From IMG/VR virus record IMGVR_UViG_2667527666_000008: a DNA stretch of 33,255 nt, one strand, 5' to 3'. This DNA comes from a virus (taxonomy: Duplodnaviria > Heunggongvirae > Uroviricota > Caudoviricetes). Positions 21,021-22,874 of this stretch are shown piece by piece. Every line of letters begins with the position of its first letter. Position 1 is the first letter of the stretch. The notes beneath the pieces were generated by a model. That model searched no databases, was not told where the DNA came from, and saw only the letters and a list, made by a program, of their open reading frames with translations. The position numbers and the translations under genes were made by a program.

Positions 21021-22874
21021 ATGGCATTTAAACACTATGACGTGGTCAGGGCGGCATCGCCGTCAGACCTTGCGAAACGACTGACACAAAAACTGAAGGA
21101 GGGCTGGCAGCCGTTTGGTAGTCCGGTGGCCATAACCCCTTATACCCTGATGCAGGCGATTGCAGCAGAAGGTGATGTGGTCGTCAGTGGTGCAACTGAG
21201 CCGGAGTGGTACTACGTCATCGTACTGGCCGGGCAATCCAATGCCATGGCTTACGGTGAAGGGCTTCCGCTTCCGGATTCATACGATGCGCCCCATCCGC
21301 GCATTAAGCAACTGGCCCGTCGTAACACAGTGACTCCCGGTGGTGAAGTATGCGTATTTAACGACATCATTCCTGCTGACCATTGTCTGCATGATGTTCA
21401 GGATATGAGTACGATTAACCATCCCCGGGCTGACCTGAGCAAAGGGCAGTACGGCTGTGTCGGACAGGGCTTACATATTGCCAAAAAACTGCTTCCGTAT
21501 ATCCCTAATAATGCGGGGATCCTGCTGGTACCATGCTGTCGTGGTGGTTCGGCATTCACCCAGGGCACGGAGGGGACATTCAGCGAGTCCACGGGAGCCA
21601 GTCAGGATTCGGCTCGCTGGGGAGTGGGTAAGCCGTTATATCAGGATCTGCTTTTCCGCACGAAGGCAGCATTGCAGAAAAACCCGAAAAACGTTTTGCT
21701 GGCGATATGCTGGATGCAGGGGGAATTCGATATGACGAATGCCAGTTACGCCCAGCAGCCAGCAGCATTTCTTGCAATGGTACAGCAGTTCCGTGCTGAC
21801 CTTGCCGGGCTGGCGGCGCAGTGTCACGGTGGAAGTCCGGCATCAGTCCCCTGGATTTGTGGCGACACGACATACGCGTGGAAACAAGAACACGGTACGC
21901 AATATGAAGTGGTATATGGTGCATATAAAGGTAAAGAATCCCAGCAGATTTATTTTGTTCCCTTTATGACCGATGGTAGCGGAGTTAATACACCGACAAA
22001 CAACCCGTCAGAAGATCCTGATATTGCCGGGTCTGGTTATTACGGTTCGGCATCCCGAACGAACAAAAACTGGGTATCATCAAATCGCCCGACGCATTTC
22101 AGCTCATGGGCGCGTCGTGGCATTATTCCCGATCGTATGGCAACTGCTATTCTGAACGTAGCCGGTCGCACCTTAGCCTTCATTAGTGGTAAGGCACCGG
22201 AAATCAAACCCTCGCCCGGCGGCGACACGCCATCGGGGCCGTCTGAAGATGCATCCGTACGCACAATCTCCCTGTTGCCGACAGCCGGAGATGCTGCTGC
22301 GCAGGGCTGGAGCATTAAGAATGGCGGAATTCAGTTGTCAGAGGGTGTATTTAAGATCACCAAGCAGAGCAATAAAACCTGGTACCTGATGCATCCGGTG
22401 GATGACGCAATTACCCTGCTGACACAGGGCGGCAGACTGACCTGTAAGTTCCGCCTCTCAGGCGCACTGACCAACAATCAGTTCGGGCTGGGGATTTATC
22501 TGTATACGGACGCTCCCGTTCCTGATGATGTGGCGATGACGGGTACTGGTAATCCGTTCCTGATGTCTTACTTCACTCAGACCACTGACGGCAGAGTGAA
22601 TCTGATGCATCACAGGAAAGCCGGAAACACTAAGCTGGGGGAGTTCGGCGATTACGGTAACGACTGGCAGACGCTGGAGCTGGTGTTCACCGCCGGCAGT
22701 GCCACGGTTACTCCGAAACTGAATGGAGTGGCTGGCCCGGCATTCCAGGTCATAAAAGACAGTCTGACACTGGGGCTGAATGCGCTGACGCTGACGGATG
22801 TTACAAAAAATGCAGCGTATGGCGTTGAGATAGAAAGTCTGGTGCTGGAGATAAATGCACCAGCATCATCATAA
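21021..22874 (+). CDS. Prophage SGNH-family esterase with DUF1737-like N-terminus (NanS-p-like sialate O-acetylesterase)
   Basis: GGAGGA ribosome-binding site; N-terminal 'MAFKHYDVVRAASPSDLAKRL' region; SGNH block-I motif 'VIVLAGQSNAMAYGEG'; 617 aa; sits where Shiga-toxin phages carry nanS-p-type esterases. Confidence 0.65.
   Translation: MAFKHYDVVRAASPSDLAKRLTQKLKEGWQPFGSPVAITPYTLMQAIAAEGDVVVSGATEPEWYYVIVLAGQSNAMAYGEGLPLPDSYDAPHPRIKQLARRNTVTPGGEVCVFNDIIPADHCLHDVQDMSTINHPRADLSKGQYGCVGQGLHIAKKLLPYIPNNAGILLVPCCRGGSAFTQGTEGTFSESTGASQDSARWGVGKPLYQDLLFRTKAALQKNPKNVLLAICWMQGEFDMTNASYAQQPAAFLAMVQQFRADLAGLAAQCHGGSPASVPWICGDTTYAWKQEHGTQYEVVYGAYKGKESQQIYFVPFMTDGSGVNTPTNNPSEDPDIAGSGYYGSASRTNKNWVSSNRPTHFSSWARRGIIPDRMATAILNVAGRTLAFISGKAPEIKPSPGGDTPSGPSEDASVRTISLLPTAGDAAAQGWSIKNGGIQLSEGVFKITKQSNKTWYLMHPVDDAITLLTQGGRLTCKFRLSGALTNNQFGLGIYLYTDAPVPDDVAMTGTGNPFLMSYFTQTTDGRVNLMHHRKAGNTKLGEFGDYGNDWQTLELVFTAGSATVTPKLNGVAGPAFQVIKDSLTLGLNALTLTDVTKNAAYGVEIESLVLEINAPASS

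Follow-up and report, generated by a model that had tools for sequence, protein, structure and literature searches.

NanS-p, the prophage-encoded sialate O-acetylesterase of Escherichia coli, is an established accessory enzyme, and copies of its gene in prophages without Shiga toxin (Stx) genes have already been recognised in the literature. The nanS-p alleles tested from prophages of EDL933 and O104:H4 all encode active esterases of 5-N-acetyl-9-O-acetylneuraminic acid (Neu5,9Ac2); the tested enzymes de-O-acetylate mucin glycans and let lysogens grow on Neu5,9Ac2 (PMC8065619). The chromosomal enzyme NanS has 9-O-acetyl-N-acetylneuraminic acid (9-O-acetyl-Neu5Ac) as its best substrate (PMC9487903). 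One NanS-p, gp84 of phage phi24B, is a virion protein, found full-length on fresh virions and cleaved later (preprint, bioRxiv 10.64898/2026.04.10.717836). Here we describe the nanS-p gene of IMG/VR record IMGVR_UViG_2667527666_000008, a stretch of 33,255 nucleotides (hereafter, the window) that represents a lambdoid E. coli prophage with an integrase at its left end and no stx. The gene occupies positions 21021-22874 of the plus strand; all coordinates below refer to this strand unless marked (-).

This stretch very probably encodes an intact NanS-p, that is, a three-domain sialate O-acetylesterase of the kind carried by lambdoid E. coli prophages. Our judgement is a joint one: it covers a functional NanS-p together with late expression, release, action in mucus and the proposal of a DUF1737 tether, as set out below. 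The open reading frame (ORF) runs uninterrupted from an ATG at 21021 to a TAA at 22872-22874 and specifies 617 amino acids (aa); a Shine-Dalgarno sequence, GGAGG, can be read 4 nt 5' of the ATG (21012-21016). An earlier sequence-only reading of the window had delimited exactly this ORF and had described a DUF1737-like N terminus, an SGNH hydrolase with a GQSN signature and a beta-rich C terminus. Profile and solved-structure matches agree with that description, and the profile search that the reading had proposed as a check recovered both SGNH and DUF1737 above the Pfam thresholds. Its identification of the product as a prophage sialate O-acetylesterase resembling NanS-p is upheld by the profiles, by the structures 3PT5 and 6YP6, and by synteny with nanS-p of Stx phages.

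The protein opens with a DUF1737 domain (aa 1-55; 21021-21185) whose anchor loop belongs to class A (GSPVAITPYTLMQ, including Tyr41); the Pfam profile PF08410 matches aa 3-50 (E=1.3e-15; score 57.4 bits, cut-off 24). A short linker, SGATEPE (aa 56-62; 21186-21206), which lacks the 11-aa segment and the "SISSP" of phi24B gp84, leads into an SGNH esterase core of the SASA/NanS type (aa 63-385; 21207-22175), matched by PF03629 at aa 66-262 (E=1.4e-12). A Pro/Ser/Gly-rich interdomain linker with no SSP motif (aa 386-420; 22176-22280) then connects the core to a C-terminal lectin-like jelly-roll domain, DUF6645 (aa 421-617; 22281-22871), which is of class CTR1 and is matched by PF20350 at aa 467-577 (E=4.4e-17). 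All three Pfam matches exceed the curated gathering scores. Searches of PDB sequences retrieved NanS/YjhS (3PT5, E=4.5e-122 over aa 59-379), to which the esterase core is 58% identical by BLASTP, and a NanS-p C-terminal domain (6YP6, E=4.3e-29 over aa 421-613), which was matched by sequence alone at 35% identity. Since solved homologues exist at these identities, we regard the fold and the active site as settled. The whole protein also matches phrog_143 end to end. NCBIfam holds no specific model for it, a single sub-threshold chance match being all that was returned, and PADLOC gave no match for NanS-p, which is therefore not a known defence protein. No hydrophobic segment was detected (maximum Kyte-Doolittle(19) = 1.07), and the N terminus is hydrophilic and not signal-like. 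With neither a signal peptide nor a membrane segment, NanS-p is thus expected to stay cytoplasmic until lysis.

In SASA enzymes, the oxyanion hole is inverted: it is provided by a Gln beside the nucleophile and is held by the Block III motif (H)QGE, which replaces the classical GxND. E. coli NanS is without the Block V Asp of DxxH, and SASA/NanS enzymes use a Ser-His pair (PMC9487903). These and the other catalytic and biochemical facts on homologues were drawn from reviews (PMC9487903, PMC8065619, and PMC8319020) and from PMC10462455. According to the alignment with 3PT5, Block I of the window protein is GQSN at aa 71-74 (21231-21242), with the catalytic Ser73 (codon 21237-21239) next to Gln72. 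The SASA-family signature of Block III, QGE, is found at aa 233-235 within WMQGEFD (21717-21725), where it would position the oxyanion Gln, and the catalytic His359 (22095-22097) lies in RPTHFSS. Ser73 and His359 align to the Ser of GQSN and the His of SSHFSS in 3PT5. The residue at -3 from the catalytic His is not Asp; it is Arg both here (Arg356) and in NanS. The predicted machinery is therefore a Ser-His pair as in NanS, with Ser73 as the nucleophile, Gln72 as the oxyanion hole held by QGE 233-235, and His359 as the general base. Residues G71, Q72, S73, N74, Q233, G234, E235, R356, and H359 are invariant among 118 full-length NanS-p ORFs (98 of them distinct) from IMG/VR. The sequence-only reading had named loss of a Ser/His/Asp triad as the observation that would overturn it. 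The Ser and the His are present and invariant, but the Asp is naturally absent; that test is wrong for this family, since NanS enzymes work with Ser-His and naturally lack the Asp.

Sequence divergence points in the same direction. Against eight alleles of the same class, the pairwise ratio of nonsynonymous to synonymous divergence (dN/dS) is ~0.2 overall, ~0.15-0.3 in every domain and 0.06-0.42 per domain at the extremes, with values of 0.06-0.18 in the esterase core. Because dN/dS is low in each of them, all three domains of NanS-p are under purifying selection. As far as sequence can tell, the protein has every feature expected of the SASA/NanS family, as well as the architecture and the location of a NanS-p.

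The nanS-p gene itself adds nothing new. It is already known, both from non-Stx nanS-p copies in the literature and from a 100% identical RefSeq protein, WP_001545494.1, annotated "SASA family carbohydrate esterase" in strain FDAARGOS_1290. Of 5426 complete E. coli genomes, 2393 (~44%) match the gene by megablast, at a median of two places per genome and at up to 13, adding up to 7875 places. Non-Stx prophages of commensal or pathogenic E. coli thus carry the same mucin-sugar tool as Stx phages.

When its domains are classified by sequence, this allele is of the class loop A/esterase E1/CTR1 and not the textbook 933W/phi24B enzyme. Compared with NanS-p of Stx2 phage Min27, whose numbering is that of phi24B gp84, it is 65% identical in DUF1737, 70% in the esterase, 35% in the C-terminal domain and ~52% overall. 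It shares with the enzymes of 933W (Z1466), phi24B (vb_24B_21, i.e., gp84), and Min27 the order DUF1737-SASA-DUF6645, the catalytic residues, the SGNH-block variants and the lack of a signal peptide, as well as a slot after Q and the tRNA genes (and stx where present) and before holin S. It differs from them in being 617 rather than 645 aa long, with an anchor loop 3 aa shorter and no 11-aa "SISSP" linker, and in its surroundings, which have no stx upstream and include an HK97-type head instead of the T=9 podovirus head. The C-terminal domain differs as well. Four sugar-binding aromatics have been proposed in phi24B, namely, Y510, Y515, Y540, and F611 (PMC10462455); they correspond to F488, Y493, F518, and L584 here, that is, F/Y/F/L instead of Y/Y/Y/F. 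Since this aromatic site is only partly conserved, the predicted sugar site may have a glycan specificity different from that of phi24B.

Other phage alleles are closer. The allele of an Stx1a phage (LC567823) is 88% identical overall (91% in DUF1737, 83% in the esterase and 94% in the C-terminal domain), and NanS-p of Stx2 phage 86 (NC_008464) is likewise 88% identical overall. Both have a loop A DUF1737, the RPTH Block V variant and CTR1, but they sit 3' of stx, whereas the present gene sits 3' of tandem STnc100 units, and their esterase core differs by 17%. In PMC10462455, phage 86 already stands out as the divergent "sequence 20," and its RPTH is there placed in Block IV. The chromosomal NanS (YjhS, 3PT5) has the Ser and Gln of GQSN, the QGE and the His, and it also lacks the Block V Asp. 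Unlike the window protein, it is a single domain of ~326 aa within the sialic-acid catabolic regulon, with no DUF1737 and no lectin-like C terminus.

To describe the mosaic structure of the gene, 21021-22874 was compared with four IMG/VR loci (L011, L016, L048, and L062). Against L011, synonymous divergence (dS) is 0 in DUF1737 and the esterase and 0.23 in the C-terminal domain; against L048, it is 0.84 in the esterase and 0.056 in the C-terminal domain. Given that, in one and the same pairwise comparison, dS can change abruptly from domain to domain, we conclude that nanS-p is an intragenic mosaic, which fits the NanS-p domain shuffling described previously (PMC10462455).

The position of the gene agrees with that of nanS-p in Stx phages. 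The late-gene antiterminator Q (PF06323; 16963-17658) is followed by a Ser/Thr kinase, a PP2C phosphatase, a truncated methylase, three tRNA genes (Met/Ile-CAT, Arg-TCG, and Arg-TCT; 19796-20045) such as are found upstream of stx in Stx phages, ~1 kb of structured noncoding RNA units, and nanS-p. The RNA units are tandem STnc100 copies (20121-20311, a weak one at 20350-20523, and 20589-20798), each ending in a terminator-like hairpin, and they lie directly 5' of nanS-p. On the 3' side, the order is a P21-type holin S (23025-23240), which is the first gene of the lysis cassette, a DUF1327 ORF, an endolysin of the phage lysozyme type (24094-24627), the terminase, and then a fusion of an S78 prohead protease with the major capsid protein (MCP) of an HK97-type head (29367-31304). 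Min27 and an Stx1a phage have the same order from Q and the tRNA genes through nanS-p to the holin, with stxAB inserted directly 5' of nanS-p; in this prophage, the stx slot is filled by the tandem STnc100 units instead. The earlier description of the region as a late cargo locus is thus a fair one, the gene lying between Q with its tRNA genes and the holin and lysozyme, in synteny with Stx phages. Terminator-like hairpins number 17 in 16900-24200, compared with 6.8 +/- 2.7 in shuffled sequences, and they cluster at 20060-20911.

This arrangement suggests how the gene might be used. Among homologues, z1466 is one of the genes most strongly induced by norfloxacin (PMC8065619), and nanS-p transcripts rise by 1-2.4 log on mitomycin C (PMC10462455). 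A terminator-packed kilobase 5' of nanS-p would fit a gene that is reached only by Q-modified RNA polymerase; such a polymerase, judging from gene position and the data on homologues, would read through the STnc100 region and transcribe nanS-p with the late genes. The cytoplasmic enzyme would then be released only at lysis by holin and endolysin. Once outside, it would deacetylate sialic acids, both free and bound to mucin, at the 9-O- (and 7/8-O-) positions while its C-terminal domain keeps it on glycans, and the resulting Neu5Ac would become usable by surviving sibling lysogens. As a further step, suggested here solely by the co-variation of DUF1737 class with head type, DUF1737 might dock the enzyme on the hexamers of the capsid made by the phage itself, as in phi24B gp84, so that virions may bring esterase and lectin into mucus.

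Several observations weigh against this account. Late expression is argued from the position of the gene and from homologues. No biochemically tested allele could be placed in the class of the present one, which has only ~52% overall and 35% C-terminal identity to the 933W/phi24B enzyme. The proposed sugar site has lost one of its four aromatics (F611 to Leu584), and two of the others are without the hydroxyl. An O157 Stx1 prophage was considered as a link between this allele class and the assayed EDL933 enzymes and was rejected: Sakai Sp15 belongs to a different class, carrying a 648-aa allele with loop C on a 933W-like body.

The STnc100 family (RF02076) is represented between the tRNA genes and nanS-p by two full copies and a degenerate one, which score, in order, 136, 30, and 165 bits; in Min27 and in an Stx1a phage only one copy is present, between stxB and nanS-p. 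A minus-strand unit at ~20806-20880 (-), which has a TATTAT resembling a -10 element and a strong terminator (20827-20806), follows immediately. It occupies the position held, right after STnc100, by the anti-small-RNAs AsxR in an Stx2 phage and AgvB in an Stx1 phage. Rfam detected neither AgvB nor AsxR 5' of nanS-p, even at E <= 1, leaving only this positionally equivalent, divergent unit, which may be a new variant of the prophage anti-small-RNA family.

The possibility of a capsid tether deserves separate consideration. In phi24B, DUF1737 of gp84 forms hexamers that plug facet-centre hexons of the T=9 capsid at their central pore, by way of a loop with a Tyr "tooth" (Tyr42), and SSP-containing linkers have been proposed as autoprocessing sites, a tentative assignment in the preprint (bioRxiv 10.64898/2026.04.10.717836). 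Because DUF1737 of gp84 is a capsid-decoration domain, host nutrition is not the sole candidate role of such proteins. The sequence-only reading, which linked the protein to the use of mucin-derived sugars by the host, is supported as to the prophage esterase architecture and needs updating on DUF1737, which is no longer a domain of unknown function. The first 33 residues of the window NanS-p are almost identical to those of gp84. The anchor-loop half of the domain belongs to a different sequence class (PVAITPYTLMQ here versus ALISTAGYGAEFIQ); it is 3 residues shorter and keeps a Tyr, at position 41. If DUF1737 anchors the enzyme to the capsid of this phage, the S78-MCP fusion would be its docking partner.

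A number of features argue against such a tether. The anchor loop, as noted, is shorter than that of gp84, and "SSP" occurs nowhere in the 617 aa, whereas Min27/gp84 has it at aa 57 and 414. The head is an HK97-type S78-MCP module with a 553-aa TerL, not a T=9 capsid of the 933W type, and among the IMG/VR loci that we typed, no 933W-type TerL or MCP stands beside any loop A allele. In phi24B, gp84 is confined to the facet-centre hexon. By established capsid geometry, T=7 capsids have no such hexon. In addition, class A alleles, and even a 100% identical protein, occur beside two unrelated head modules, and the loci behind the co-variation were sampled in strata of N-terminal type and come from E. 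coli prophages that are related to one another. Taking both sides together, we consider capsid attachment of this particular protein possible but doubtful, and the protein should be filed as a NanS-p and not as a demonstrated capsid decoration protein.

The co-variation itself was examined in 291 IMG/VR loci from four scans, which were reduced to 227 by merging those with identical downstream DNA. Each locus was assigned a DUF1737 loop class and a downstream head module; the heads were identified in tblastn searches with the TerL and MCP proteins of four reference types, and TerL stood in for head type wherever MCP lay out of range. Loop A, the class of the window, is found with lambda-like heads in 25 cases, S78-MCP heads in 13, a ClpP-MCP head in 1 and 933W-like heads in 0. 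The gp84-type loops B/B' accompany 933W-like heads in 21 of 22 cases (the other being S78-MCP), and loop C accompanies ClpP-MCP heads in 22 of 24 (the other 2 being lambda-like). Within the E2/CTR2 body, the crystallised type, the partition is perfect: B goes with 933W-like, C with ClpP-MCP, and A with S78-MCP heads. Sakai Sp15 (locus L294), which combines loop C with a ClpP-MCP head, is an independent fit to the pattern. No sub-variant of DUF1737 inside class A tells lambda-like heads from S78-MCP heads. A fourth head module was noted in L294 and in L098 (15737-21426), made up of a 670-aa terminase of the gpA type, a portal of the lambda family, and a 706-aa ClpP-MCP fusion; it accompanies the third DUF1737 loop class (GGPFSSYTDDGAALIQ) on a 933W-like esterase and C-terminal body.

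Adjusted mutual information (AMI) with head type was computed for the 78 de-duplicated loci in which the ORF was full-length and the head had been typed. DUF1737 was the best of all markers tested (0.58-0.70), ahead of the C-terminal domain (0.35-0.39), the esterase (0.28-0.31), the 430 bp upstream of nanS-p (0.21-0.28), the 600 bp downstream of it (0.21-0.27), the endolysin (0.19 or less), and the holin (0.10 or less). Separating nanS-p from the head genes are the holin and the endolysin, and these hardly vary from one of the four head types to another; little association would accordingly be expected from physical linkage as such. Even so, it is the most distal 55 codons of nanS-p that follow the head. 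Linkage that simply decays with distance was tested as a cause of the association with markers on both sides of the gene and rejected, the AMI of holin and endolysin not exceeding 0.19 and that of the flanks not exceeding 0.28. Another possible cause is lineage structure, acting together with cassette-type conversion of the esterase and the C-terminal domain.

The co-variation fits a head-matched capsid adaptor. Under this model, DUF1737 would be a swappable module of ~55 aa matched to the head, class A to lambda-like/HK97-like heads, B to 933W-like, and C to ClpP-MCP, while the remainder of the protein, esterase plus lectin, is free to recombine between lambdoid prophages. Based on the loci compared here, we hold the model only tentatively and lean towards doubting it. 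The co-variation of DUF1737 with head type is the forward-looking point of this work. If it is confirmed, NanS-p would be virion-borne in several phage morphotypes, its benefit would be understood less as feeding lysogens and more as shaping how the phage behaves in mucus, and DUF1737 would be a natural modular adaptor for capsid display. If the adaptor exists, virions of a very common non-Stx prophage type, beyond phi24B, would carry a sialate O-acetylesterase and a lectin, a phage equivalent of a viral haemagglutinin-esterase acting in gut mucus. The haemagglutinin-esterases of corona-, toro-, and influenza C/D viruses likewise place a lectin and an SGNH sialate-O-acetylesterase on the particle (PMC9487903). 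They are functional analogues only, belonging to another SGNH family with no detectable sequence relationship and being envelope glycoproteins, not capsid decorations.

A related alternative is that the enzyme is primarily a virion component serving the phage and not the lysogen. Fixed to the capsid, esterase and lectin would bind and then destroy contacts with O-acetylated sialic acids, so that particles dwell in or move through mucus like viruses with the coronavirus or influenza C haemagglutinin-esterase. This overlaps with the account preferred here and differs from it only in the beneficiary. It would account for full-length gp84 on fresh phi24B virions with DUF1737 hexamers on hexons, for the rank of DUF1737 class as the best predictor of head type among the markers tested, and for a late-region gene beside lysis and structural genes whose product has no export signal. 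Capsid binding, however, has been demonstrated solely for a T=9 podovirus of another loop class, class A is common to two unrelated head types and has the shorter loop without the processing motifs, and homologues give lysogens a growth benefit on Neu5,9Ac2 in experiments (PMC8065619). We regard this alternative as a serious minority possibility and prefer an enzyme that is released at lysis and acts on mucus sialic acids.

A different target, namely, O-acetylated glycans of bacterial surfaces such as O-antigen or capsular polysialic acid, is unlikely. Deacetylating them could open access to receptors or prevent re-binding to debris, a possibility raised in a review of Stx phages (PMC8065619), and a capsid-borne enzyme with a carbohydrate-binding module would suit the purpose. 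Yet the core is 58% identical to NanS, with its preference for 9-O-acetyl-Neu5Ac, and NanS-p enzymes, where tested, have acted on sialic acids and mucin glycans. The presence of the gene in ~44% of complete E. coli genomes also far exceeds the share of E. coli expected to display O-acetylated sialic acid on the surface.

That nanS-p is a functionless, decaying relic of a defective prophage is highly improbable: the prophage is partly degraded, with an IS3-type insertion and a truncated methylase gene, but the ORF is uninterrupted and preceded by a strong ribosome-binding site, the catalytic residues are invariant, dN/dS is ~0.2 per domain, and a 100% identical protein is encoded beside another head module in a genome unrelated to this one. 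We consider it equally improbable that the protein is a SASA/CE6 esterase acting on something other than sialic acids, for example acetylated xylan or a different dietary polysaccharide; some SASA members are acetylxylan esterases (PMC9487903) and the C-terminal domain of this allele is divergent, but among solved structures NanS is by far the nearest relative, and O-acetyl sialic acids are substrates of every NanS-p assayed.

Other features of the prophage were noted in passing. Between Q and the methylase remnant, a Ser/Thr kinase (279 aa) overlaps a PP2C phosphatase (247 aa) by 4 nt (17730-19309). The kinase matches the PADLOC models mad6 (1.7e-40) and PD-T4-6 (1.8e-34) and is also Stk2-like; megablast of the DNA of the pair against 50,697 phage records returned nothing. 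A kinase with its own phosphatase is possibly kinase-based anti-phage defence cargo. The adjacent DNA methylase gene (19420-19746) is truncated at its 5' end, with the last 108 codons left. Between the holin and the lysozyme lies a 268-aa ORF (23245-24051) of which only the first 100 aa match DUF1327/YdfR, the C-terminal extension having no family match; at this position, FDAARGOS_1290 has a YdfR protein of 114 aa and an Stx1a phage has an ORF of 263 aa. The early region contains an IS3-family insertion (9602-10815 (-)) with two overlapping ORFs and an ALIL frameshift pseudoknot (10418-10534 (-), 120 bits). Finally, a DicF antisense RNA (4546-4597 (-), 77 bits) and the sok antitoxin RNA of a hok/sok module (12664-12839, 120 bits) are present, as in cryptic prophages of the Qin/Rac type.

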